From Thermoplasmata archaeon (GTDB taxonomy: Archaea; Thermoplasmatota; Thermoplasmata; Lutacidiplasmatales; UBA184), in contig JASHPV010000007.1 of the NCBI GenBank assembly GCA_030037875.1, positions 10,041 to 74,040 on the forward strand: a stretch of 64,000 nucleotides of DNA. Direction: 5' to 3'. This document shows, one piece after another, positions 602 through 50,000 of this stretch; position 1 is the stretch's first letter, and the number at the start of each line of letters is the position of its first letter. Position numbers and translations under genes: made by a program. The notes under the pieces were generated by a model, which made no database searches, was not told the origin of the DNA, and saw nothing but the letters and a program-made list of their open reading frames with translations.

Positions 602-1285
602 TCACGGCGCTCCCTCCACCGGCGGCATGTCCGGCAACGGGGGCACCTCGGCCGATGGCAGTTCCACGGGCGTCGTGCGGGGCCGCTCCTCGACGCCCTT
701 CACGTGGATCTCGTCCGGCAGCCGGGCGTTGGGCCCCATGATCCAGACCTTCACCCCGATGACGCCGGGTTTGAGGCGCGCCTGGGCGAATCCTTTGCCG
801 ATGAGCAGGATGGCGGCTTCCCCGCAGTACTTGATGGTCCCCGCCTTGAACCGCTCCGTCCGGTGACGCTCCCCGGTGAGTTTTCCCGATAGGATGACCT
901 GGCAGCCCCGGGCCCCGGCCTCCATGATCCGGCGCACGGTCGAGTGGCCGGCGCGCCGGAAGTGCCAGCCCCGTTCGAGCGTGCCGGCCAGTTTTTCCGC
1001 CATCAGCTGGGCGTTGAGCGCCGGCTGCCGTTCCTCCTGCACCTCGATCTGCGGATTGTCGAGCTTGAACCGGTTCTGGATGTCCTGGGTCAGCTGCTTG
1101 ATGAGCTCGCCGCGCCGGCCGATGATGATGCCGGGCCGCTCGGTGATGAGCGTGACGCGGGTGCCCATCGGCGTGCGCTGGATGTCGAGGCCCCCGAAGC
1201 CCGCGCGGGCGCTCTGCTGGATGAGAAAGTCCTTCAGCAGGACGCGGCGGGTGGCCTCTTCGACGACCTTCCGCTCGCTCGACAT
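602..1285 (-). CDS. rps3: 30S ribosomal protein uS3
   Basis: Internal start MSSERKVVEE... inside long ORF 602..2215 (N-terminal extension is spurious). KH-domain region GIIIGRRGELIKQL. ATG 1285..1283 shares a base with the uL22 stop (TAATG). Confidence 0.93.
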   Translation of the reverse strand: MSSERKVVEEATRRVLLKDFLIQQSARAGFGGLDIQRTPMGTRVTLITERPGIIIGRRGELIKQLTQDIQNRFKLDNPQIEVQEERQPALNAQLMAEKLAGTLERGWHFRRAGHSTVRRIMEAGARGCQVILSGKLTGERHRTERFKAGTIKYCGEAAILLIGKGFAQARLKPGVIGVKVWIMGPNARLPDEIHVKGVEERPRTTPVELPSAEVPPLPDMPPVEGAP

Positions 1286-4002: not shown

Positions 4003-5000
4003 ACGCCCTGCTTCGACGCCGTGCTCAGGAAGCGGATGTCGACCTTCTCGACACTCGCGATGTGACTTCGGATCGGCGCCCGGAAGCGAAGGAGTCGCTT
4101 GGAGGGGCCCGGTACGGTGCCGTGGACGAGGACGCAGCTCGAGCGGACCGAGCCGTAGTGGAGGTACCCGCCCTTGGGAGTGATGACGTCAATCTTCGGG
4201 TCGTGCACGATCTTCAGCAGCCGGATGTTGTAGACCGTTCGCTTGTGGTAGCCCATCTGACCGGCCTGCGGAATACGGTACGTCACGAAGCTCGGGTTGT
4301 GGGGTCCCAGGGTCCCGATCATCCGGCGGTGTTTCGAGTTCTTGTGCGGCTGGAGGTGCACCCCCCACCGTTGGATGTGCCCTTGGAATCCCTTGCCCTT
4401 GGTGACGCCGATGAGGTCCCAGAATTCGCCCTCTTTGGCGATCTGGTCGATGGTAACTTCTTTGCCGAGCTGGCTGAGTGCGAACGACCGACGGTCCTCG
4501 ACGGCTTCGCCCGAAACCCGGACCTCGAAGATGTCGGGGGTCTTGGATCCGACGCCTGTCACCAACCACGGCTCGGTGTGGGCGATCAGACGAACGTCGT
4601 CGGCCGGGGCGCTCCGGAAAGCCTCGAGCTTCGAGGGCTCCGTGGCCGGGTGCCGCGGGATGACCCGGTCGACCTCATCGTGGGTTTCCTCGGCCCATGC
4701 CTCCCCTACGACACGGCTTCCGTACGGATCGTCCCGATAGAGTCGGGCGCCGACCACGTGGATGGGTGGGGTTTCGATCACGGTGACCGGTACCGACACT
4801 TCTTGCCCGGCCGTGGTGGAGCGCTTTCGGTAATCCACGATGAACGCGTGAGTCATGCCGACCTTGAAGCCGGCGAACCCCTCCAGGGACGGCTGTTTGG
4901 GGCCGGGAGGCCAGGTACGGACCCTAGGTACACTACGCGACGAGCGAGAACGGGGGGAGTAGCCGAGCGAGCCTCGGCGAGGTCGGTGTCGGCGGGCCAT
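3999..5000 (-). CDS. rpl3: 50S ribosomal protein uL3
   Basis: Internal start MARRHRPRRGSLGYSPR... (ATG 5000..4998) in ORF 3999..5063. Conserved FKVGMTH..., GKGFQG. First gene of the operon. Confidence 0.93.
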   Translation of the reverse strand: MARRHRPRRGSLGYSPRSRSSRSVPRVRTWPPGPKQPSLEGFAGFKVGMTHAFIVDYRKRSTTAGQEVSVPVTVIETPPIHVVGARLYRDDPYGSRVVGEAWAEETHDEVDRVIPRHPATEPSKLEAFRSAPADDVRLIAHTEPWLVTGVGSKTPDIFEVRVSGEAVEDRRSFALSQLGKEVTIDQIAKEGEFWDLIGVTKGKGFQGHIQRWGVHLQPHKNSKHRRMIGTLGPHNPSFVTYRIPQAGQMGYHKRTVYNIRLLKIVHDPKIDVITPKGGYLHYGSVRSSCVLVHGTVPGPSKRLLRFRAPIRSHIASVEKVDIRFLSTASKQGV

Positions 5001-5050
5001 CGATTTGGAGCGTCTTTCGCCTCCGGTGGGGGCGGGGGAGAAGGGTGCCC

Positions 5051-8669: not shown

Positions 8670-8933
8670 ATGCGGTTCGGATGGGCGTATTGGCTCCTGG
8701 GAACGCTCCTTGCCATCACCGCGGTGATGCTGGTACCGTCGATACTGATCTCCGCATACAGCGCGGTCCCCCCGCTCCCGTGGACGTTCCTCGCCCTCTA
8801 CGGAACGGTCGCGTTCCTCTGCGCCCTCGGTGCGGCGCTCCTCCTCCGCAGAGGTCGGGTTCTTCTTCACGCGGATTCCATCATCGGTTTAAAGAGCGGG
8901 CACGACGATGAGAGCCGCGGGCCTGTAGCTTAG
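8670..8933 (+). CDS. Small two-TM membrane protein (hypothetical)
   Basis: 87 aa with two hydrophobic helices. Its 3' end overlaps the tRNA 5' end by 16 nt, which lowers confidence. Confidence 0.3.
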   Translation: MRFGWAYWLLGTLLAITAVMLVPSILISAYSAVPPLPWTFLALYGTVAFLCALGAALLLRRGRVLLHADSIIGLKSGHDDESRGPVA

Positions 8934-9027
8934 CTGGGACAAAGCACTGGCCTTCTAAGCCAGCGAACTCGGGTTCAAAGGCCGGCGGGAAGTGATCTTC
9001 CTTTCGGCGGAAACTCCCGACAGGCCC
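8918..9027 (+). tRNA. tRNA-Arg (anticodon TCT) interrupted by a ~35-nt intron in the T-loop (position 59/60 or 60/61)
   Basis: Hand-folded. Acceptor GGGCCTG/CAGGCCC is 7/7 WC. D-stem GCTT/AAGC. Anticodon stem CTGGC/GCCAG with loop CTTCTAA. T-stem TCGGG (8968-72) pairs CCCGA (9015-19) only after skipping 8979/80..9013/14. A14, G18G19, A21, U33, G53, C61 are present. Confidence 0.6.
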
Positions 9028-9036
9028 GCTCGCCCG

Positions 9037-10110
9037 TCACGTCGGCGCGCTGCCGCCCACGAGCGCCGTGCACTTTTCGCAGAGCAGGCCCCTCGGGCCG
9101 GGCGGAATCGAATCTCCGCAGAGCGGGCACGTCGCGCGCGCGTCGGCGGCGGCGAGCAGCTCCGCGACGCTCGTCCGTAGCAACGGGTTCGCGGGAACGC
9201 CGGCCGAGCTGGGAGGAGAGCGAAGCCGGTCGGCGGACGGAGCGACCGCCTCGAGTTGCGGACGGTACTGCCCCGTGGGGCGGTCGAGCAGGACCAATCC
9301 CTTGGCGCTGAGGGTCTCCAAGCTCGACGTGGCGCGCTCTCGTACACCGCCGAAGACCGGCGCGAGGTCGATGGCAGTGACGCCCCGGGTTTCGAAGACG
9401 ATCTCGAGCGCCCGCGCGTTGGGCAGCGAGACGTCGCCCCGCGCGAGGTACCGGTCGAGCGCATGCGACACTCGAGAGGAACGGCGAACGTAGGCGACTC
9501 CCCTCAAGCGACCGTGCCGCAGATCCGGGAGCAGCCCGTTGTCGATGAGGTCGAGCTCGTAGCGAAGACGTTCCTCGGAAAGGTAGAGGAGGACGGCGGT
9601 GGAGAACGGGACGATCCCCGTCTGTCGCACGAACTGCGCCCACTCCGGCGGCGTGAAGAGATCGCTTCGAGGCGTCTTGCTGGGAACGCCGCGGGTCGCC
9701 TCCCGGTCCTGGAGCGCCGACCGGGGGAGGTACGTGTCGCGGAGGAGCAATCGGGCCATCGCCCGCACAGGGGTCGGGTCCGGGCCCAGCGGGACCAGCG
9801 TCGCCGCTCCGTCTTCTTCGATCGAAAGGGACCGGATCGGTCGCAAGAATTCCCACGCCGGGTCGGTGTCCACCGCCTGGGGAAACTCCAGCGTCAGGTG
9901 GTCGAAGGGGGTCTCGGATAGCAGGCCGTGGAGGATGGAGGGATACTCGGTCCCGTCGACGCGGGGAACGTAGGGCGTGAGCTTCTCGCGGCGCCGGGCC
10001 CGGTACTCCTCGAACGCTCGGTCGAGGGCCCGCCCGGAGTACTTGTCGTGAAGCTCCGGGGCTCCTCGACTGGCGATGGCGTGCAGTTCATCCGGCGACG
10101 CGCCCGTCAT
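9037..10110 (-). CDS. Hypothetical protein with winged-helix-like region and C-terminal Cys4 zinc ribbon (putative regulator)
   Basis: Internal ATG (MTGASPDEL..., 10110..10108) of ORF 9037..10281. C-terminal CPLCGDSIPPGPRGLLCEKC. Overlaps the GT4 gene stop by 23 nt, which suggests cotranscription. Confidence 0.45.
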   Translation of the reverse strand: MTGASPDELHAIASRGAPELHDKYSGRALDRAFEEYRARRREKLTPYVPRVDGTEYPSILHGLLSETPFDHLTLEFPQAVDTDPAWEFLRPIRSLSIEEDGAATLVPLGPDPTPVRAMARLLLRDTYLPRSALQDREATRGVPSKTPRSDLFTPPEWAQFVRQTGIVPFSTAVLLYLSEERLRYELDLIDNGLLPDLRHGRLRGVAYVRRSSRVSHALDRYLARGDVSLPNARALEIVFETRGVTAIDLAPVFGGVRERATSSLETLSAKGLVLLDRPTGQYRPQLEAVAPSADRLRSPPSSAGVPANPLLRTSVAELLAAADARATCPLCGDSIPPGPRGLLCEKCTALVGGSAPT

Positions 10111-12583: not shown

Positions 12584-13753
12584 TCAGTTCATCCGCTCGA
12601 GAACGGTCACGACACTGGTCGCGCCGGTGCCGCCGACGTTGTGCGCGAGCCCCACCTGGGCGCCAGCGACTTGTCGCTCTTTCGCCTCGCCTCGCAATTG
12701 ACGCACCAGCTCGACGACTTGGGCCACTCCGACCGCCCCGAAGGGCCGCCCTTGGGCCTTGAGGCCCCCGGAGGTGTTGATCTGCGTGGGGCCCTTGCCG
12801 AAGAAGCGTCCGTCGCGCATCGCCACGCCGCCCTCCCCCTTCGCCACGAAGCCCAGGTCCTCGAGCGCGACCAGTCCCCCGATCGAGTAGGCATCGTCGA
12901 TCTCAGCGACCTGGACATCCGATGGCTTCCGGCGCGCTTGGCTGAAGGCGCGCTTCCCCGCGAACACCGTCGAATCCATCGTTGTGAGGTCGCGTCGGTG
13001 ATGCAGCGCCATCGTGTCGCAGGCGACCTGGCTCGCCGCGATCTTGACCGGCGTGTCCGTATATTTCCGTGCCCCCTCGAGTGGGCCCAGCAGCACCGCG
13101 GCGGCCCCGTCCGATAGCGGCGCGCAGTCGAGCAGGCCGAGCGGGTCCGCCACCATGCCGGAATTGACCACCTGGTCGAGGGTCACCTTGTTCCGAAAAT
13201 GCGCGAGCGGGTTCTTCGAGGCCATCTGGTGGTCATGCACCGGCAGCGCGGCCAGGTCTTCTCGTCGCGTCCCGTACTCGTGCATGTGTTTCCGAGCGAC
13301 CATGGCCCAGAGGGACGGCAGGGTGGCACCGAAGACGAGCTCCCACTCGGTATCCGCCGTCGCGTCGACGATCCGCGCCGCCTCGGTGTCGGAGACGTCG
13401 GTCATTTTCTCGGCGCCCCCCACAACGACGAAGTCGTAGGCGCCGGACGCGACGGCCAGATAGCCCTCGTGCAGCGCCATGGCGCCGGAGGCGCCACCGG
13501 CTTCGACCCGGATCGCGGGGAGATGATGGCCGGCCAGACCGGCGTAGTCGAGGATCAGGGGAGCGATGTGCTCCTGTTCGAGGAAGGCCCCGCTCGCCAT
13601 GTTGCCCAGGTAGAGTCCGCCCAGGTCGTGCGACCCCAGCTTTCCATCGACGAGCGCTTGGAAGCCGGCCTCGATACCGATCTCGCGGAACGAGTGGTCC
13701 CACAGCTCGCCGAACTTGGTCATTCCGATGCCCAGGATCGCCACGTCGCGCAC
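12584..13753 (-). CDS. Acetyl-CoA C-acetyltransferase (archaeal thiolase)
   Basis: GTG start giving MRDVAILGIGMTKFG... inside ORF 12584..14251. Thiolase motifs (NTSGG, GHNVGGTG). Upstream ORF portion is a GC artefact. Confidence 0.9.
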   Translation of the reverse strand: MRDVAILGIGMTKFGELWDHSFREIGIEAGFQALVDGKLGSHDLGGLYLGNMASGAFLEQEHIAPLILDYAGLAGHHLPAIRVEAGGASGAMALHEGYLAVASGAYDFVVVGGAEKMTDVSDTEAARIVDATADTEWELVFGATLPSLWAMVARKHMHEYGTRREDLAALPVHDHQMASKNPLAHFRNKVTLDQVVNSGMVADPLGLLDCAPLSDGAAAVLLGPLEGARKYTDTPVKIAASQVACDTMALHHRRDLTTMDSTVFAGKRAFSQARRKPSDVQVAEIDDAYSIGGLVALEDLGFVAKGEGGVAMRDGRFFGKGPTQINTSGGLKAQGRPFGAVGVAQVVELVRQLRGEAKERQVAGAQVGLAHNVGGTGATSVVTVLERMN

Positions 13754-15530: not shown

Positions 15531-15818
15531 GACTTGGCCCTGGTTGTCGTCCGAAGGGTTCGACAGCCATCGAAGTCCTCGCCGAGAACTCAGGCTGGAT
15601 GGGAAGTGGACTGGGCGAGATTTCCCGGTGCCGGAGGAGACGCCTCCGGCCCCTTTGAACTCGCGACCTCTACCTTGCCAAGGTAGCGATCTTCCGCTGA
15701 TCTACCAGCCCACCGAGGCGGCGGAGTACGGCCGGACAATAAGCACTTCGCCGCAGGGGTGCCCGTTCGCTGCCGAAATGGAAGAGTTAATGGGGACGTG
15801 GCCCGTCCGCGCCCACCG

Positions 15819-41759: not shown

Positions 41760-44700
41760 ATGGACTCTGAATCTGGCAGCTGGTGGAGCCGTTACGGCTG
41801 GACGACCACCATCTTGCTCGTTGCTTTCGCTGCGGCGTTCATCGTTCGGGTCATTTTCTCGCTCAGTGTCTTCGAGCAGTGGGGCTGGCTCTACGTCTAC
41901 GGGGGCGGTTCGGATTCGTTCTACCACTGGCGAGTGGCGGACTACATCCTCACCAATCACACGAACCTGATCCACGATTCGCTGCTCAAGTATCCCGTCG
42001 GCGCGACCAATCCACGCGAACCGCTGTTCGACTGGATGAACGCGATCTTGGGGATCATCTTCGCGCCGATCTTCGGCGGAAGCGCCGTCAATGCCGCGGC
42101 TTTCTTCCTCAACCTAGACCCGCCCCTCTGGTCGGCTCTCTCGGTCTTCCCGATCTACCTCATCGGGAAGGAGGTCAGCTCCAAGCGGATGGGCCTCGTC
42201 GCGGCCATCACCTACCCGTTCGTCGTCGGGAGCATTCAGGCCGCCACGTTGGGCTACGCGAACTATCTGCCCTTCTACACGTTCTTCATCCTGATCTACT
42301 TCTACGCCTACCTTCGCACAGCGAAGCTGGTCGGAACCAAAACCTACATCACGAGCTTCCGACACCCAAGTGAGGTCCTGGCCGGTTTGCGGCGGTTCCT
42401 CCGCGAGGACCGCCTCGCGGTGAAGTGGGCGGTCTTCGCCGGCGTCTCGCTGGGCGCGCTCGCACTCGCCTGGCAAGGGTATCCGCTCGCTGTCGCGATC
42501 GTCATCATCTCGCTCGCCGTCATTATGGTGGTCGAGCGGATCCGGCGGATCGATTCGGTCAACCTGTACCTCGCGACGTGGATCGCCGGGCTCGTCGGGT
42601 TCCCGATGGCCGTGCCCTACTACCTTGCCCAGCACCTGTTCGCCACCTGGTTCGACCTCCCGCTGCTGATCTATTTCGGCGGACTCGTACTGCTCTTGCC
42701 GTTCGTGCTCCTGCGCCAGTATCCGTGGGTCGTCACGGTGCCCTTGCTGGGGGGCGTCGTTCTGGCCGGTCTGGCGGGTTTCGCATTCATCGCCCCTGCG
42801 TCGTTCCAGACGCTGATCACGGGCCAGGGCTACTTCGCGAAGACGCTGATCTACTCGACGGTCGCCGAGGCTCAGGCCCCCTCGTTCGATGCGCTTGTGC
42901 TGTCGTACGGGGTCCTGACGTTCTTCCTCGCGTTCGTGGGTCTCGGGCTGTTCGCGATTCACCTGATCCGGCAACGGTTCCGCCGGGAGCACGCCCTCTT
43001 TGTCGTGTTCGCCGTCGTGAGTATCTACCTCCCGGTGTCGGCGGCCAAATTCTTCTACCTCGGTTCGCCGGCCTTCGCGCTGCTTCCCGCGGAGGCACTG
43101 CTCCTCATCCTGGACGTCGCCGGCTACCCGCAACTCCGTCGAACGGCGGCCTCCCTCTCCGGTACCCGGGGTCAGTTCACCGCGTTCCGGCGCGCGTTCA
43201 AGGCCCGCCACGTGCTGGTTCTCCTGCTCATCGTCGTTATCCTGGTGCCGAACGTGTGGTATGCCGTCGACGCGGGAATACCCTACAACACCAAGGCCAC
43301 CTACAGCACCCAGGTCTACGACACGCTGCCCCCGGCGCTCCGTACGACCCCGGCCAACGCGTCGAGCTTCTACCTCGGCGCCTCGGGCACGGAACTCGAT
43401 ACGCCCAATCAGTACGACGAGGCCGGGTACAACTGGCTCGCAACGCAAGATACGAATCTCGCCCCGGCGGCCCGGCCCGCGTTCATCAGTTGGTGGGATT
43501 ACGGATTCCAAGCGATCGCCGAAGGGCAGCATCCCTCGGTCGCCGACAACTTCCAGAACGGTATCCCGGCCGCCGGGAACTTCCTCCTGGCCCAGAACGA
43601 ATCCCTCGCCATCGGCGTGCTCGCCACCACGCTTCTCCAGGCGGAGGAAGAAACGAGCGGATACGCCTACCTTCCTCCGGCGCTCAACGCGATCCTAGCC
43701 TCCGATGGCGTGAACGTCGCCGAGTTGCACACGCTGCTGGCGAACACGTCCGCCGACCTCCCGCTCGTGATCGACCATCCGGAGCGCTACCTCCCGGTCA
43801 ACCCGAAAACGATCACCGCGACCAACGCGATGTTCGACGCGGTAAGCTGGTTCCTCGCCAACACGCTTCCCGAGAACGGAGTGGCGCAGGTGTACGACGA
43901 TATCCAGACCTACACGGGCTGGACGATCCGGTACGCGATGGTCGATGACCGGCTGTTCCCCTTCTCGGGGACGAACACCGGCATCTTCTACGCGCCGGCC
44001 GACCTCACGGGCCGCGTCATCGGGCTGGACGGCGCCCCGACGTCGTACTACACCATCGAGGCGGTCGGCTCGGACGGGAACGTGTACCCGATCAACGCGG
44101 TGCCCTCCGGGGTATCGGTGGTGAACTACGTGCTGAACCAGCTCGCGCCGTTCTACAACTCGATGATCTACCGCATTTACATGGGCTATAACGGGACCGA
44201 CATCGGGCTCAGCGCCGGAATCCCCAGCCTCGAGGGCTCTCTCACGAGTTACACTCCGGAGCCCGGGTGGATGCTCCAGCATTTCGAGGTCGCGTACCGG
44301 ACCGCCTTCTACTCGCCGACGCCCACGACCTCGAGCAGCGCCTGCGACATCGCCACGAACCTCCCGGAGGCGGCCCTCCTCGCAGCGAAGACGAACGGCA
44401 CCGCCAACGTCGGTCCCGACTGCTATTTCTCCAGCGGCGAATCGATCCTGGAGTACTATCCCGGAGAGATCCTCTCGGGCACGGTGACCCTCCCCGATGG
44501 AACCCCCGTCCCGGGCGCCCGTTTGACGGTCTACGACGGCTGGCACATCCCCCATCAGACGGTCCTGACCTCCGCCGACGGAGGGTTCTCCGTGATCCTG
44601 CCGCCCGGGAACGACACCCTGAACCTCACGAGCGGGCCGTTGCAGGGGCTGGCCCAGAACGGCACCGAGCTCCTGGACTCGATTCCCCTGGTCGTGGACC

Positions 44701-47700
44701 CGGCCCTCGGGTTCAGCCTGGAGGCGCCCCCGATCGCCCAGAACTTCGTTCTTCAGCCGGGCTCCGTCAACGGCTTCGTTTACTGGAACGCGACCGGAAA
44801 TTCGACCTACGACTCGTCCGTGGACCCCGTGGCCGTGGGGGCCAACGTTACGCTGGGCGGCCCCGGTCTGCGTACCTACAACGCGACCACGGACACGGAC
44901 GGTAGTTTCCGTCTGACCGATGTCGCTCCCGGGGTCTACAACTTCACGGTGCGAGCCGGAGGCGCAACATTCTCCCAGGGCCAGCTGGCGGTCCGGCCCG
45001 GCGCCGCCGCGAACGCGACGGCCGGGCTCGTCCCGTCGAAGGTCACGGGAACGGTGAAGCTGGAGGACGGAACTCCGGCGGTCGGCGCCACGGTCACGAT
45101 CTCGGACCCGGCCGGGCTGTTGGAGGCCGCGGCGACGAACGGTTCGGGGAGCTACACCTTCGCCAATCTGGTCCCGGGGAACTACTCGGTGAAGGCCGAG
45201 TCGGGCGTCAACCTGGCCGCCAACGCGACGGCCGTGGCGCTCAACCAGACCGTGAAGACCGTGACCCAGAACTTGACGCTCATCCCCGTAGTCCCCGTGG
45301 ACTTCGAGGTCGAGGCCGGAGGGGCCCCCGTGCCGGGCTTCGTGGTCCGGATGACGCCCATCCGGGAGACGTCCGGCCTTCCGGGCGCGCAGGCCCCCCG
45401 GCCGACGGACGCGCTCGTCTTCACCAGCGACGCCACCGGGTACGTCCACGCGAACCTGCCGGCCGGCAATTACTCCATCTATGGATACGGACCGGTCGGG
45501 TCGACCTTCCTCGCCGGTTTCGAGAGCGCCTATCTGCCCACCGTCGGGGCCCGCATCGCCGTTGCCCCGCTCCAGCTGTCGCCCGCGGCCTCCCTTTCGG
45601 GCCGATCACCGCTTCCCGCGGAGGTCCCCACCGTCGACCTAAGCGCGACCCAGGTGGCGCTCTATGACAGCGCGGGCAACGAGCTCACCTTCTTCGCGAA
45701 CTCGACCGGCAGCTGGTCGGTCATGGCCCCCGTGGGGAATTACAGCGTCCAAGCCTTGGCCGTGGGCATCGCCGCCGGGGCGCTGAACTACTCTGCCGTC
45801 GGTTACGTGGACCTGTCCCGGGCGACCTCTGTCTCGTTGCCGCTGACTCCGGCCTTCCGATACTCTACCCAGGTGGGAACGCTGGTACCTCCGGACGCCA
45901 CGTTCTACCCCGCCTCCGCTTCCGAGGTGCACCTTACGGTGAACCCCGCGGGTGCGACGATCAGCACGCTCACCGATTACAACGGTTCGACGAGCTTCCT
46001 GCTCCCGACGGCCGAACCGGATACGACGTACTGTCTCGCGGTCCAGAGCAACGGGTACGGAAGCTACTCCGCCTGCAGCCTCTCCGTCGGCGAGCTGACG
46101 GCGATTTCACGGGTCATTCTTCCATTGTTCAACGACACATTGAGCGTGACCGTGACCGGATTACCGTCCGGAGCTATGTTACGGCTCAACGCCACGTCGC
46201 TCGGCCCGCCGGCCCAAACCCTATCGGTGGCCGGCGGCGCATCCTTTGATGTCTCGTTGGCGCCGGGGACGTACCAAATCACGGCGTGGGCCCCACCCGC
46301 GTCCGGCGCGGGGGTCTATCTCCCCGCTCAATCCGTCAACGTCACCCTCCCGTTGGGAGGGATCACCGTGAGTTTGGGGGTCCAGCTGTACTTCCAGTTG
46401 GCCGCCAAAGGGGTTCTGAGCCTCCCGACCGGGGTGACGGCCTCCGCGGTCCAACTGAAAGTGTACGCGCCCCCGTTCAACTTCTCGGTGTCGGGGACGG
46501 TCTTCGAGAAAGGATTTGACATCGCTCCGGGAGTCTACTCGGTCTACGCCTCCGCCCTGGTCTCCGGGGTGAGCTATGCTTCGTTGAGTCAGGTCACGGT
46601 GAGCTCGAGCGGCGTCGCCACGCCGACCGTGAGCCTCGCGAGCGGCGTGTCCTTGACCGCGACGCTCGTCGGCCCGGGAGGTGCGCCCCTCAATCTGACC
46701 GCGCCCGTGTACTGGAGCGGGCCCGACGATTCCCAGCTCTACTCCGTGGCCGTGGACGGCACCGTGACGCTCTCGCTCCCCGGCAGCGCGATATACACGC
46801 CCCAGCTGAACGTCACCCTCACCACGAGCGTGAACGGCATCCTCCGGTACGTGACCTACGCGGTGGTGCCCGGGACCAGCTGCTCTGTCGGAACGACGGC
46901 CTCCGAGTGCTCGATCCCGCTCTCCGCGACGTACCTCGCCGCCGGCATCGCAGGTCAGTTCGACTGGAACGGCGCCCCGCTCACGATCCCGGGTACCGTG
47001 CAGCTGATGGGGCCGTTTCCGTCGACCAACATCTCGGTGGTCACGACGACGAACGGCCTGTTCACAGCCGCTGTGTTGCCAGGAGTCTACACCCTGTACG
47101 CCACCGCCGGGTCGGGCGCGGGGGTCGTCGCGAGCCTGGTGCAGGTCACGGTTCCGTTCCCTTCGACGAACATCACGGTCGACCTCGCTCCCGCCTGGAC
47201 CGACACGCTCACCCTGCTCGCGCCGAGCGGAGTCTCGTCCTCTCCCACCGGGAATGTGACTTGGACGAACGCGGCGGGGGTCTCCTGGACCGTGTCGGGT
47301 GTGCCGCTCGGTGTCGTGGAGGGCTGGGTCCTTCCGCAGGGCGTCTGGACGGTGTCGGCCAACGGCACGATGGCACCTTACGGACGCCCGGTGTCGGCAC
47401 TCGCGACCGGCACCGTGTCGTTGGTGACAGGAAACCAGGCCACCAACCTCGTGCTGATCCCTCAGTTCACCCCGGCCGTGACGATCGCGACCCGGCTTCC
47501 CGACACCGCCACGGTGCCGGCCGGCGGCCTCGCGACCTTCTCGTTCACCGTGCAGAACACGGGGAACGAGCCGGTGACCATCCGCTTCTACGGCGACCCG
47601 GCGGCCTGGAATTTCACGTTCACGCCGGCCACGATGACGCTCGGGGTGGGCTCCGGGAACTCGACCGGGGGAGGTACGGTGTTGGTCCGAATCCCGTTGG

Positions 47701-48320
47701 GCACGGACACGAACCACCCGCCCGTCGTCCTCGGCGCCGTGCTCGTGTCGAATCGCGCGCAAACCGTGGGCACTTCGGTTCCCTCCCCCACGGTCTCCAT
47801 CATCCCGGTACCCGCGATTACCGTGGGCCCCGGCTTGAGCCCCACGGTGACGCTGAAGACCGCGACGGTGAGCTTTGTCGTCCAGAACACGGGGAACTCT
47901 CCTTACTCGGCCGCGGTGAGCGTCGTCAACCAGGCGGAACTGGAACAGCTCGGCTGGTCGGTCGCGTTGATGAAGGGCCTCGGCGCGGTGACCGCGCCGT
48001 ACGACTTCGCGCCGGGTCAATCGATCACGTTCTCGGTCGTGCTCTCCACAACTTCCTTCGCCCAGGCGCCGGGTACCGTGGTGGTTCAGGCCGTCGACCT
48101 GAATTCGTCGGGCAACGTCGTCGCGTCCGCGGAGCTCCCGGTGCCCATCGCCTCCATCGCGGCCCCGAGCGGTATCTCCGTCAGCGGCCCGAACGTCGGC
48201 TCCCCGCCCATCATACCAGACTGGGGGTGGACCGTGATCGCCATTCTCCCCGCGGTGGCCTTCCTCGGGATCGTGCTAACGGTCCGATGGTGGCGTACCC
48301 GCCGGTGGACCCGGAGGTGA
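41760..48320 (+). CDS. aglB: Oligosaccharyltransferase AglB (STT3 family) with a very long C-terminal extracytoplasmic extension and C-terminal TM anchor
   Basis: 2186 aa. N-terminal ~13-TM STT3 core with WWDYG motif (FISWWDYGFQA). ~1300 aa of repeated beta-sandwich-like segments (GTVTLPDGTPVPGARLTVYDG, GTVKLEDGTPAVGATVTISD). Ends ...ILPAVAFLGIVLTVRWWRTRRWTRR. Confidence 0.85.
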   Translation: MDSESGSWWSRYGWTTTILLVAFAAAFIVRVIFSLSVFEQWGWLYVYGGGSDSFYHWRVADYILTNHTNLIHDSLLKYPVGATNPREPLFDWMNAILGIIFAPIFGGSAVNAAAFFLNLDPPLWSALSVFPIYLIGKEVSSKRMGLVAAITYPFVVGSIQAATLGYANYLPFYTFFILIYFYAYLRTAKLVGTKTYITSFRHPSEVLAGLRRFLREDRLAVKWAVFAGVSLGALALAWQGYPLAVAIVIISLAVIMVVERIRRIDSVNLYLATWIAGLVGFPMAVPYYLAQHLFATWFDLPLLIYFGGLVLLLPFVLLRQYPWVVTVPLLGGVVLAGLAGFAFIAPASFQTLITGQGYFAKTLIYSTVAEAQAPSFDALVLSYGVLTFFLAFVGLGLFAIHLIRQRFRREHALFVVFAVVSIYLPVSAAKFFYLGSPAFALLPAEALLLILDVAGYPQLRRTAASLSGTRGQFTAFRRAFKARHVLVLLLIVVILVPNVWYAVDAGIPYNTKATYSTQVYDTLPPALRTTPANASSFYLGASGTELDTPNQYDEAGYNWLATQDTNLAPAARPAFISWWDYGFQAIAEGQHPSVADNFQNGIPAAGNFLLAQNESLAIGVLATTLLQAEEETSGYAYLPPALNAILASDGVNVAELHTLLANTSADLPLVIDHPERYLPVNPKTITATNAMFDAVSWFLANTLPENGVAQVYDDIQTYTGWTIRYAMVDDRLFPFSGTNTGIFYAPADLTGRVIGLDGAPTSYYTIEAVGSDGNVYPINAVPSGVSVVNYVLNQLAPFYNSMIYRIYMGYNGTDIGLSAGIPSLEGSLTSYTPEPGWMLQHFEVAYRTAFYSPTPTTSSSACDIATNLPEAALLAAKTNGTANVGPDCYFSSGESILEYYPGEILSGTVTLPDGTPVPGARLTVYDGWHIPHQTVLTSADGGFSVILPPGNDTLNLTSGPLQGLAQNGTELLDSIPLVVDPALGFSLEAPPIAQNFVLQPGSVNGFVYWNATGNSTYDSSVDPVAVGANVTLGGPGLRTYNATTDTDGSFRLTDVAPGVYNFTVRAGGATFSQGQLAVRPGAAANATAGLVPSKVTGTVKLEDGTPAVGATVTISDPAGLLEAAATNGSGSYTFANLVPGNYSVKAESGVNLAANATAVALNQTVKTVTQNLTLIPVVPVDFEVEAGGAPVPGFVVRMTPIRETSGLPGAQAPRPTDALVFTSDATGYVHANLPAGNYSIYGYGPVGSTFLAGFESAYLPTVGARIAVAPLQLSPAASLSGRSPLPAEVPTVDLSATQVALYDSAGNELTFFANSTGSWSVMAPVGNYSVQALAVGIAAGALNYSAVGYVDLSRATSVSLPLTPAFRYSTQVGTLVPPDATFYPASASEVHLTVNPAGATISTLTDYNGSTSFLLPTAEPDTTYCLAVQSNGYGSYSACSLSVGELTAISRVILPLFNDTLSVTVTGLPSGAMLRLNATSLGPPAQTLSVAGGASFDVSLAPGTYQITAWAPPASGAGVYLPAQSVNVTLPLGGITVSLGVQLYFQLAAKGVLSLPTGVTASAVQLKVYAPPFNFSVSGTVFEKGFDIAPGVYSVYASALVSGVSYASLSQVTVSSSGVATPTVSLASGVSLTATLVGPGGAPLNLTAPVYWSGPDDSQLYSVAVDGTVTLSLPGSAIYTPQLNVTLTTSVNGILRYVTYAVVPGTSCSVGTTASECSIPLSATYLAAGIAGQFDWNGAPLTIPGTVQLMGPFPSTNISVVTTTNGLFTAAVLPGVYTLYATAGSGAGVVASLVQVTVPFPSTNITVDLAPAWTDTLTLLAPSGVSSSPTGNVTWTNAAGVSWTVSGVPLGVVEGWVLPQGVWTVSANGTMAPYGRPVSALATGTVSLVTGNQATNLVLIPQFTPAVTIATRLPDTATVPAGGLATFSFTVQNTGNEPVTIRFYGDPAAWNFTFTPATMTLGVGSGNSTGGGTVLVRIPLGTDTNHPPVVLGAVLVSNRAQTVGTSVPSPTVSIIPVPAITVGPGLSPTVTLKTATVSFVVQNTGNSPYSAAVSVVNQAELEQLGWSVALMKGLGAVTAPYDFAPGQSITFSVVLSTTSFAQAPGTVVVQAVDLNSSGNVVASAELPVPIASIAAPSGISVSGPNVGSPPIIPDWGWTVIAILPAVAFLGIVLTVRWWRTRRWTRR

Positions 48321-49622: not shown

Positions 49623-49955
49623 TCGCCCTCGGGGACGCGTGCTCGCGGTCCCGTACGGGCAGTTTCTCGAGGCGTATCTCCTCGCTTACGGGACCGTGGG
49701 GTACGGGCCTTGACACCTGGCCGCCGGAATCCGGGTCTCCCTCGCTCCCAACGGAACGGCGTGCACGAAGTCGTCGTAGCTCAATCCCAGCACCTGGACA
49801 GAGGGGTTCGCGGAGAGGCTCGTGCCGGCCTCGGCGCGGCGCTCGGAACACCTCGCAAACCCTTTTCTCCCGAGTTACTCTGGTTCGCGCGCGGCCGGGA
49901 TGGGGTAGTCTGGCCTATCCTGGGGGACTGTGGATCCCTCGACCCGGGTTCAAAT

Positions 49956-49980
49956 GGGGACGGGGACACCCCCCGTCCCC
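49956..49980. other. Perfect 10-bp stem hairpin GGGGACGGGG-acacc-CCCCGTCCCC in the intergenic region between convergent genes
   Basis: Read directly in the sequence. Lies ~20 nt beyond the stop of the minus-strand HAD gene and inside the tRNA-like region 49890..50000. Confidence 0.3.
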
Positions 49981-50000
49981 GGAGAGTCTCGGTCCCGGCC

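Follow-up and report, generated by a model that had tools for sequence, protein, structure and literature searches.

What is the 35-nt sequence that separates the two halves of the T-arm in an otherwise complete tRNA-Arg(UCU) gene, and would the transcript of such a gene yield a mature tRNA? The gene lies in a stretch of 64,000 nt of DNA, referred to here as the window. The host is an uncultured acid-soil archaeon of the Lutacidiplasmatales/TMEG group, with a genome of 67% GC. A preliminary description of the locus had read it as tRNA-Arg(TCT) with a 35-nt intron in the T-loop, between tRNA positions 59 and 60 (59/60).

A tRNA-Arg(UCU) gene with a 35-nt insert in the T-loop

The gene had been placed at 8918-9027, which is the right locus with both ends shifted by one base, as base 1 of the tRNA is 8919 and the gene ends at 9028. 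Its parts are as follows.

8919..9028, + strand: pre-tRNA-Arg(UCU), complete gene, positions 1-73 (sequence read, partial Rfam match, ARAGORN after in-silico splicing)
8919..8979, + strand: 5' exon, tRNA positions 1-59, with the 5' strand of the acceptor stem, D-arm, anticodon arm, variable loop, 5' strand of the T-stem, and T-loop U54-A59
8954..8956, + strand: anticodon UCU, in the anticodon loop CUUCUAA
8969..8973, + strand: 5' strand of the T-stem, UCGGG, which pairs with CCCGA at 9016-9020
8974..8979, + strand: T-loop U54-A59, UUCAAA, which U60 would complete after intron removal
8980..9014, + strand: putative intron, 35 nt, between tRNA positions 59 and 60, GGCCGGCGGGAAGUGAUCUUCCUUUCGGCGGAAAC; its removal restores the cloverleaf
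9015..9028, + strand: 3' exon, with U60, CCCGA at 9016-9020, acceptor strand CAGGCCC at 9021-9027, and G73 at 9028

Our reading of the sequence confirmed the stems, the invariant bases and the TCGGG/CCCGA T-stem claimed before. The acceptor stem (GGGCCUG/CAGGCCC) is paired 7/7, the D-stem (GCUU/AAGC) 4/4 and the anticodon stem (CUGGC/GCCAG) 5/5, and the invariant U8, A14, G18G19, A21, U33, G53, U54U55C56, A58 and C61 are all present. The gene ends at the discriminator base G73 (9028), and CCA is not encoded. ARAGORN called no Arg gene in the unspliced 64,000-nt window, and the Rfam tRNA model matched the unspliced gene in part (8919-8977), with 35.5 bits against a threshold of 29. When 8980-9014 was deleted in silico, ARAGORN called a perfect tRNA-Arg(tct) with the T-loop UUCAAAU. 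The perfect cloverleaf obtained in this way, together with the covariation among orthologues reported below, bears out the original reading of the locus. Judged by its sequence, the locus is very probably a functional, single-intron tRNA-Arg(UCU) gene of a high-GC Thermoplasmata archaeon, spliced as a bulge-helix-bulge (BHB) intron. The junction of the spliced exons is predicted to read CUCGGGUUCAAA/UCCCGACAGGCCC, with the slash marking the joint, which for the mature tRNA can also be written ...GGGUUCAAA/UCCCGA...

A predicted BHB motif at the exon-intron borders

The preliminary description had proposed a search for BHB motifs at the junctions, and an acceptable one is present, with the following parts.

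8974..8977, + strand: central helix, exon strand U54 U55 C56 A57, facing GGAA at 9009-9012 (U54-A, U55-A, C56-G, A57·G)
8978..8980, + strand: 5' bulge, A58 A59/G, with the predicted 5' splice site at 8979/8980
8981..9008, + strand: inner helix and hairpin of the intron (MFE fold), in which GCCGG at 8981-8985 pairs with UCGGC at 9004-9008
8987-8992 / 8997-9002, + strand: distal intron stem GGGAAG/CUUCCU with a UGAU loop (MFE fold)
9009..9012, + strand: central helix, intron strand GGAA (GGAG, GGAA, GGGA or GGGG in 116/117 orthologues)
9013..9015, + strand: 3' bulge, A C/U60, with the predicted 3' splice site at 9014/9015

In the hBHBh' structure of the Arg gene, the outer helix is the 5-bp T-stem, and the two 3-nt bulges lie four positions apart, on either side of a central helix of three standard pairs and one A·G apposition at A57. 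This central helix is absent from thermodynamic fold predictions (MFE and RNAalifold). As predicted from the sequence, the motif has a near-canonical 3-4-3 geometry. The cleavage positions would follow from the established BHB rule, and the excised 35-nt intron would be expected to carry the circle junction ...CGGCGGAAAC/GGCCGGCGG... The hairpin GGAAG-UGAU-CUUCC (8988-8992 / 8997-9001) and the GCCG/CGGC helix noted earlier inside the insert are both present. The latter had been considered able to form a relaxed BHB; the BHB exists, but GCCG/CGGC is its inner flanking helix, and the motif belongs to none of the relaxed forms (hBH, HBh' or BHL), as the three tRNA genes of the window and the orthologues have the full set of two 3-nt bulges and two flanking helices.

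The same kind of insert in other tRNA genes

A survey of other tRNA genes had been recommended with the first reading of the locus. Two more are present in the window, for Ala and His, and a 59/60 intron is found in all three.

15607..15711, - strand: tRNA-Ala(GGC), whose 59/60 intron is 33 nt long (15653 to 15621); partial Rfam match at 15656-15711, and ARAGORN call of Ala(ggc) after splicing
49893..50000, + strand: tRNA-His(GUG) with a 32-nt intron at 59/60 (49955-49986); G-1 at 49893 and C73 at 50000 (sequence read)

The Ala gene has G3:U70. On the unspliced His gene ARAGORN reported 49894-49984, with a wrong 3' end, and after splicing it returned a clean tRNA-His with G-1:C73. Both introns have the UUCA/GGRR helix, the bulges and the GC-rich inner hairpin seen in Arg. 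Across the three genes, ARAGORN missed two and mis-ended the third, and Rfam truncated two and missed the third. The expectation that standard annotation would overlook the Arg gene thus holds for these two programs; it does not carry over to tRNAscan-SE 2.0, which in archaeal mode uses models made for BHB introns (PMC8450103) and with which tRNAs for all 20 amino acids were recovered in a genome of the same order (PMC9287336). Plain ARAGORN also called Val(gac) and Ala(cgc) inside coding sequence, and ARAGORN with intron options proposed implausible introns of hundreds to thousands of bases within coding regions; both sets of calls were discarded.

On related contigs, the 59/60 intron is also found in Ser(CGA, GCU, GGA), Gln(CUG) and Leu(UAG), and Leu(CAA) on these contigs is without it. 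The intron is present in 8/9 of the tRNA species sampled, and in 3/4 of those found only as neighbors of a target gene. The BHB geometry is retained in six tRNA species besides Arg, and position four of the central helix co-varies between tRNAs, with A57 facing G in Arg, Ala and His and G57 facing C in Gln. tRNA-Leu(UAG) contains a second insert of 24-27 nt in the D-loop; its exact borders are ambiguous, and because exhaustive deletion followed by ARAGORN accepted many alternatives, we give this insert by size and location in the D-loop alone. Metagenomes were searched with the pattern GTTCAAAGG-N(18-30)-CGGARACTC, for which approximately two thirds of the 120 matches listed were due to chance, lying on low-GC contigs or having non-complementary T-stems. 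Matches were kept when the T-stem paired and ARAGORN made a call after splicing. Since this pattern demands an intron, its matches say nothing about how large a share of the tRNAs has one.

Conservation of the insert across relatives

To follow the Arg gene through species-representative genomes, we scanned them with an exon-only pattern, which would also match intron-less copies with the same exons. At least 119 MAGs (about 119 species), nearly all of them Thermoplasmata, were matched, and these come from Scottish AcS/SubAcS, SPRUCE and Microflora Danica samples. The matched Arg loci have a 29-37-nt intron at 59/60, with the exception of one truncated locus and two low-GC genomes, where JBMFNP010000057.1 has no intron and JAMCUS010000033.1 a 13-nt insert. 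An intact intron-less tRNA-Arg(TCT) elsewhere, which had been named as a sign that the present locus is a decayed copy, was not detected in high-GC genomes by the exon-only scan, the sole intron-less match being a Thermoplasmata MAG of 41% GC.

The 117 distinct orthologous Arg sequences with a 59/60 intron have near-identical exons and diverged introns. Throughout this set, pairing is complete (100%) at U54 (with A or G), at U55 (with A or G) and at C56 (with G), and 116/117 sequences have a G opposite A57. The first nucleotide of the intron is G in 107 of the 117, and the intron nucleotides of the 3' bulge are AC in 82, the first of them being A in 111. As the exon side is invariant, the support for the central helix consists of kept complementarity and not of double changes, apart from position 57. 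The inner helix has a mean of 6.6 consecutive base pairs over the 117 introns, compared with less than 0.4 in shifted registers. For 55 introns of equal length, 96.4% of cells are paired, compared with 31-69% when the partner is slid, and the observed covariation score was reached by 0/500 shuffles; in the inner helix, 93.5% of cells are paired and 9/10 pairs show double compensatory changes. RNAalifold independently predicts the same intron stems. We considered a coincidence in which a tRNA-like 5' fragment is followed by chance, after 35 nt, by a 3' fragment complementary to it, given that GC-rich complementary segments are generally abundant in a 67% GC genome. The loss of inner-helix and overall pairing in the shifted registers argues against such a coincidence, as does the repetition of the arrangement in all three tRNA genes of the window and in 117 distinct orthologues, and we assign it no probability.

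Loci in relatives that are syntenic with the window, with thiolase 74-89% identical, carry Arg and Ala introns at the same site with diverged sequence, the orthologous Ala introns being 28-37 nt long. A simple GC3-based gene caller overlooked real genes, thiolase among them, and synteny and Pfam were used in its place for this reason. Upstream of the Arg gene, a further conserved element was located.

8888..8894, + strand: TATA-like box TTTAAAG, centered approximately 28 nt upstream of tRNA position 1 (upstream A/T conservation)

The A/T content at each of positions -29 to -26 is 79-93% over the 136 distinct orthologous upstream sequences compared, and the background is about 15-20%.

These data bear on a further alternative, in which the tRNA gene is a pseudogene in decay or was disrupted by the remnant of an integrated mobile element, with an att-site scar left in the T-arm. 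In its favor, archaeal integrases commonly insert into tRNA genes at the 3' half, and neither ARAGORN nor Rfam recognized an intact gene. However, the insert is just 35 nt long and without repeats or coding capacity, and the neighborhood is ordinary syntenic chromosome with no integrase genes. Across about 119 species both exons are intact and near-identical, whereas the insert has diverged within a structural constraint, and the exon-only scan gave no intron-less copy from a high-GC genome. With exons, BHB and the upstream TATA-like box all conserved, the signs of decay that the preliminary description had asked about are not seen, and we regard a pseudogene or scar as exceedingly unlikely. 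The same kind of intron is present in the Ala and His genes of the window and in more than 100 related species, so that the 59/60 intron is best seen as an ancient trait maintained in the lineage, and not as a defect.

Proposed splicing pathway

Introns of the BHB type at 59/60 are an established class, and the EndA of ARMAN-2 cleaves one in vitro (PMC3239211; positions in PMC4090602). This precedent counts against an alternative in which the insert stays in the mature tRNA, where it would be no intron but a structural extension, an additional stem-loop projecting from the T-loop. The insert is a stable hairpin conserved by covariation, as such an arm would also show. Yet the complementarity of U54-U55-C56 to GRR of the intron, complete in the 117 sequences, would sequester the bases of the T-loop/D-loop elbow, and the unpaired stretches of exactly 3 nt, four positions apart, have the geometry of an EndA substrate. 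In addition, the length of the insert varies (29-37 nt) and its sequence drifts freely beyond the BHB. A retained arm is consequently very unlikely in our estimation, and we return to the spliced intron.

From the motif and from the 59/60 cleavage in ARMAN-2 by analogy, we infer excision and ligation along the following lines. The TATA box near -28 would drive a transcript with its start a few bases before position 1. Before splicing, this transcript would be unable to form the T-loop, with U54-U55-C56-A57 paired to the 3'-proximal GGAA of the intron, and the T-stem, the central helix and the GC-rich intron hairpin would together create the hBHBh' with its two 3-nt bulges four positions apart. 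EndA would cut after the second nucleotide of each bulge, at 8979/8980 and 9014/9015, and RtcB would join A59 to U60, after which the T-loop UUCAAAU could form and be modified. In such a pathway the transcription, the cleavage sites, the enzymes EndA and RtcB, the mature spliced tRNA and the mechanism of spread are all predictions from sequence. As to spread, the exon strand of the central helix is the UUCR of the T-loop; since this is nearly universal, an intron ending in GGRR-NN could build a proper BHB with nearly every tRNA, and such generic docking would explain why the same site is filled in at least eight tRNA species of the lineage.

EndA is regarded as universal in Archaea. Pfam scans of about 40 ORFs of the window, which is approximately 3% of the approximately 2-Mb genome, detected no tRNA_int_endo domain, and tblastn with M. 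jannaschii EndA (PDB 1A79) gave no match in 1.8 Mb of window and related DNA. EndA has been described as conserved throughout Archaea and Eukaryotes (PMC3239211), and the enzymes of Thermoplasma and Ferroplasma are of the narrow-specificity α'2 type (PMC6379350, PMC8707768). An α'2 EndA might not accept a central helix with an A·G apposition, which counts against the proposed pathway.

Comparison with known systems

The closest likeness is to ARMAN-2, which has 59/60 T-loop BHB introns, those of Pro(GGG) being strict hBHBh' (2011, PMC3239211), and which is likewise a non-crenarchaeal host with many disrupted tRNA genes. ARMAN-2 belongs to the DPANN and has a three-unit ε2 EndA of broad specificity, whereas the present host belongs to a Thermoplasmata order with cultured relatives that have narrow α'2 enzymes (PMC6379350). 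The Cys intron of ARMAN-2 is short and relaxed (hBH), whereas those described here measure 29-37 nt, each with its two bulges and a long inner hairpin.

The Thermoproteales also have BHB introns outside the anticodon loop in many tRNA genes of one order, with 59/60 among the sites. Isoacceptors with different anticodons can have similar introns there, which points to transfer from one tRNA gene to another (Sugahara et al. 2008, Fujishima et al. 2010, as summarized in PMC4090602 and PMC8450103). Many positions are used in that order, the motifs are often relaxed and one gene may contain as many as three introns, in contrast to the single position that dominates among the genes sampled here and the near-strict motif. 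The EndA of the Thermoproteales is (αβ)2 with a Crenarchaea-specific loop. Unlike introns spreading in that order, the present one appears to be stably inherited over at least 119 species and not recently transposed.

Canonical euryarchaeal introns at 37/38 share the 3-4-3 hBHBh', with an exon-exon outer, an exon-intron central and an intron-intron inner helix (Marck & Grosjean 2003, cited in PMC6379350), and the presumed EndA/RtcB pathway would be common to both. At 59/60, however, the T-stem replaces the anticodon stem, the T-loop UUCR replaces the anticodon-loop bases in the central helix, and the fourth central pair is an A·G apposition in tRNAs with A57. Ectopic T-arm introns that must be removed before T-loop modification are also known from tRNA genes of the red alga Cyanidioschyzon merolae and of nucleomorphs (PMC9602550, PMC4090602); these are eukaryotic and differ in endonuclease complex, positions and lengths, so the likeness is one of analogy only.

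Significance for the Thermoplasmata

In the accepted view, non-canonical tRNA introns are tied to Crenarchaeota/TACK, Nanoarchaeota, ARMAN-2 and an EndA with a special loop (PMC5829648, PMC6379350). The kind of intron is already known, from the 59/60 BHB introns of ARMAN-2 and the Thermoproteales; its order-wide spread in Thermoplasmata is the part for which we found no report. A full-text literature search, mostly without subscription journals and weak evidence in this respect, gave no report of T-loop introns in Thermoplasmata/Lutacidiplasmatales. We see an even chance that a near-strict 59/60 BHB intron became fixed in the majority of tRNA genes of an order-level Thermoplasmata clade (Lutacidiplasmatales/TMEG and relatives, at least 119 species) and has persisted there through long divergence. 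If so, this would be the first lineage on the euryarchaeal side outside DPANN with pervasive non-canonical tRNA introns, and it would offer a natural test of whether such introns require a broad-specificity EndA, the strictness of the motif possibly being due to a narrow α'2 enzyme. The universal UUCR of the T-loop would then serve as a generic docking strand through which one type of intron colonizes many tRNAs.

The affected order comprises soil and peat archaea that are abundant in public metagenomes, and tools without archaeal BHB models can distort the tRNA counts used to assess MAG quality. As a comparative system, the order may help to show which of two traits, the position of the intron or the strictness of its motif, evolves together with the enzyme, what age non-canonical introns can reach, and whether the invariant T-loop acts as a universal landing pad for their spread.

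A tRNA-Arg(UCU) gene interrupted in the T-loop

The tRNA-Arg gene of the window reads GGGCCUG UA GCUU AGCUGGGACA AAGC A CUGGC CUUCUAA GCCAG CGAAC UCGGG UUCAAA (35 nt) U CCCGA CAGGCCC G, with the anticodon UCU at 8954-8956, every stem entirely Watson-Crick and no encoded CCA. It is listed here with the other features discussed below.

8888-8894 (+), TATA-like box of the Arg gene, placed by comparison of orthologous upstream flanks
8919-9028 (+), tRNA-Arg(UCU) gene, with a 35-nt insert at 8980-9014 between tRNA positions 59 and 60
15711 to 15607 (-), tRNA-Ala(GGC) gene, with a 33-nt insert at 59/60, immediately 3' of UUCAAA; missed by ARAGORN
49893-50000 (+), tRNA-His(GUG) gene, with a 32-nt insert, also at 59/60; ARAGORN placed its 3' end wrongly at 49984 instead of 50000

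In the unspliced window, ARAGORN called no Arg gene, and the Rfam tRNA model matched the locus only partially (8919-8977, 35.5 bits), skipping the T-arm. Once 8980-9014 was removed, ARAGORN returned a perfect tRNA-Arg(tct) with the T-loop UUCAAAU. Both this result and the sequence reading bear out the cloverleaf with a 35-nt insert given in the preliminary description, which had placed the gene one base too early: its first base is 8919, not 8918, and the discriminator G73 is 9028. The observation of the intron is thus confirmed and its reading as a T-loop intron supported.

The other tRNA genes of the window also carry non-canonical introns. ARAGORN's sole call in the unspliced window was a His gene of odd length (49894-49984, 91 nt), and a second partial Rfam match lay at 15656-15711 (-). 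Spliced in silico, the Ala and His genes fold into clean cloverleafs that include G3:U70 (Ala) and G-1:C73 (His), and both share the bulge-helix-bulge (BHB) of the Arg gene. A permissive Rfam scan of the entire window found no tRNA beyond Arg, Ala and His, so all three tRNA genes of the window are interrupted at 59/60.

Anatomy of the junctions

The junctions of the Arg, Ala and His genes have the same architecture. The 5-bp T-stem forms the outer helix, and U54, U55, C56 and R57 lie opposite an intron tetramer (GGAA, GGGA or GGAG) two bases 5' of the 3' junction. One 3-nt bulge consists of A58, A59 and intron base 1, and the opposite one of the final two intron bases and U60. A GC-rich intron hairpin starts right after the 5' bulge and stops directly 5' of the GGRR tetramer. 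This hBHBh' (3-4-3) arrangement is the one that EndA, the splicing endonuclease of archaea, recognises (PMC3239211, PMC6379350), and would place the cuts in the Arg transcript at 8979|8980 and 9014|9015. A relaxed BHB containing a GCCG/CGGC helix had been suggested earlier. That helix is present, but it is the inner helix, while the central helix is UUCA/GGAA, and the motifs are near-strict, never relaxed here. The short central helix is absent from thermodynamic folds, which do contain the T-stem and inner hairpin.

At the fourth central-helix position, A57 (8977) faces G (9009) rather than U, an A.G apposition that also occurs in Ala and His and is kept in 116 of the 117 Arg introns.

Conservation and covariation of the Arg intron

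Through homologues of the thiolase encoded between tRNA-Arg and tRNA-Ala we reached seven syntenic loci (L001-L007). These relatives, whose thiolases are 74-89% identical, have both tRNA genes, and in each gene a 59/60 insert has diverged in sequence while retaining the motif. At the species level, we scanned one genome per species with a pattern built only from exon elements (anticodon arm, T-stem and UUCAAA), which can match intron-bearing and intron-less genes alike. At least 119 stretches were found, almost all from Thermoplasmata MAGs; the matches listed include JAKIWV010000003.1 (MAG SubAcS15-31), 'Candidatus Lutacidiplasma silvani AcS3-62' and UBA184. Among the matches listed, the window and the seven syntenic loci, 123 of 127 pattern-bearing loci have introns of 29-37 nt, comprising 117 distinct sequences.

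Of the remaining four loci, one is cut off by a contig end and one stops a single residue before the 3' motif sought. The other two belong to low-GC genomes. L050 (JBMFNP010000057.1, 41% GC) has the same Arg exons without an intron. L068 (JAMCUS010000033.1, Thermoplasmatota FK_Sedi_A_Bin.118, 38% GC) has a tRNA-Arg(UCU) gene interrupted at 59/60 by 13 nt, in which UGAA pairs with UUCA, an A57-U pair included; because it has no inner helix, this insert is BHL-like. It resembles the tRNA-Cys intron of ARMAN-2, a 13-nt hBH intron at 59/60 that is cut in vitro by ARMAN-2 EndA (PMC3239211). The L068 gene also has an apparent additional insert of ~17 nt in the D-loop.

Across the 117 distinct introns, U54, U55 and C56 pair with the tetramer in 100%; 107 introns start with G, and 82 have AC in the 3' bulge. 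The inner helix averages 6.6 consecutive pairs, compared with fewer than 0.4 at any shifted register. We examined covariation in a gapless alignment of the 55 introns of exactly 32 nt, where 96.4% of cells are paired in the named structure versus 31-69% in slid registers. Compensatory double changes affect nine of the ten inner-helix pairs (75 cells), and none of 500 shuffles matched the covariation score. RNAalifold independently predicted the T-stem and a 10-bp inner helix.

Flanking signals

The motif (A/C)TTAAG, rich in A/T, is common to the 136 distinct orthologous upstream flanks and lies at -30 to -26 relative to tRNA position 1; A/T makes up 79-93% at -29 to -26 against a background of ~15-20%. 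Archaeal TATA boxes are expected at this position. Together with the preceding purine-rich positions -34/-33, the box is consistent with an archaeal BRE/TATA promoter. A run of at least four T within 25 nt downstream occurs in only 1 of 134 flanks, so a simple oligo-T tract is not what terminates the gene.

Taken together, the conservation of the intron, its covariation and the conserved promoter box rule out that the Arg locus is a pseudogene, an integration scar or a chance arrangement. We have high confidence that 8919-9028 is a functional tRNA-Arg(UCU) gene with a spliced T-loop intron.

Distribution among tRNA species

A generic pattern derived from the conserved junctions retrieved 120 metagenome stretches, of which about two thirds matched by chance. 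After filtering by T-stem complementarity and then by splicing followed by ARAGORN, 59/60 introns were found in Arg(UCU), Ala(GGC), Ser(CGA), Ser(GCU) and Ser(GGA), and also in the adjoining genes Gln(CUG) and Leu(UAG). The tRNA-Gln(CUG) gene, on three related metagenome contigs (L245, reverse strand, about 4760-5050; also L185 and L145), has a 34-nt 59/60 intron. Its T-loop is UUCGAA and its facing tetramer CGGA or CGAA, so G57 pairs with C, whereas A57 lies opposite G in other tRNAs. Position 57 is the sole central-helix position free to co-vary, and it does so. Across a ~50-nt spacer downstream on the same contigs, tRNA-Leu(UAG) carries two inserts: a D-loop insert of 24-27 nt, flanked by GGCCAA and CGAGG, and a 59/60 intron of 35 nt. 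The same high-GC lineage also has an intron-less gene, tRNA-Leu(CAA) (L245, reverse strand, about 13650-13732), and hence the T-loop intron is not in every tRNA gene of the lineage. Among bystander genes only (His, Ala, Gln and Leu-CAA), three of four have the intron, a small sample that gives no genome-wide fraction.

Proposed processing

The Arg gene would be transcribed from the TATA box, the BHB would hold the T-loop bases, EndA would cleave both bulges, the ligase RtcB would join the exons, and the T-loop would then fold and be modified. Because the T-loop UUCR that supplies the exon side of the central helix is near-universal, an intron ending in GGRR-NN would fit almost any tRNA. We propose that this fit explains the use of one site in so many isoacceptors, and the G-G...C-GGRRAC ends shared by introns of different tRNAs also agree with this proposal. 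Pfam scans of about 40 window ORFs and tblastn with M. jannaschii EndA against 1.8 Mb of retrieved DNA found no EndA gene of the lineage. Cultured Thermoplasmatales have a narrow alpha'2 EndA (PMC6379350, PMC8707768), and such an enzyme in this lineage would fit motifs that are never relaxed.

Genomic setting

The window, at ~67% GC, is a stretch of ordinary archaeal chromosome carrying a ribosomal-protein operon and genes for DnaK, HisRS, TiaS, pyruvate:ferredoxin oxidoreductase, a thiolase/HMG-CoA synthase/DUF35 trio, an STT3-like giant protein, EF-1beta, CoaBC, succinyl-CoA ligase, and topoisomerase VI A and B; the best homologues of the latter's B subunit (68-99% identical) are all from 'Thermoplasmata archaeon' MAGs. 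Lutacidiplasmatales (formerly TMEG) are soil and peat archaea with 2.1-Mb genomes of roughly 69% GC (PMC9287336). The window probably comes from a member of this order or of a close relative.

Three further loci were noted. In the giant protein (41760-48320 (+), 2186 aa), an N-terminal region resembling the oligosaccharyltransferase STT3/AglB is joined to repeats of the carboxypeptidase-regulatory-like (prealbumin-fold) type; it is longer than is usual for archaeal AglB. Directly downstream of tRNA-Arg, a convergent gene (9037-10100 (-)) kept in synteny in all relatives examined (L001-L007) encodes a protein of ~355 aa that matches no Pfam family and whose C-terminal tail, CxxC...CxxC, is zinc-ribbon-like. 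In the ribosomal-protein operon region, a sub-threshold Rfam match to the C/D-box sRNA sR41 (1118-1157 (+), 21 bits against a gathering threshold of 54, E = 1.2) is probably due to chance.

Relation to known tRNA introns

BHB introns at 59/60, one of the known non-canonical sites (PMC4090602), are an established class, and the proposed splicing mechanism is conventional. The tRNA-Pro of ARMAN-2 has strict hBHBh' introns at 53/54 and 59/60 (PMC3239211), and Thermoproteales have many non-canonical introns (PMC8450103). What appears to be unreported is the host, a Thermoplasmata order, and the filling of one position in many isoacceptors with near-strict motifs in more than 100 species; our search, limited to the searchable literature, found no account of such a host and pattern. 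The paper describing Lutacidiplasmatales (PMC9287336), which relied on tRNAscan-SE 2.0.5 with its archaeal mode, makes no mention of introns. With its taxonomic setting and its conservation throughout the order, the intron offers a useful, probably undescribed example of how tRNA introns and the splicing endonuclease may co-evolve.
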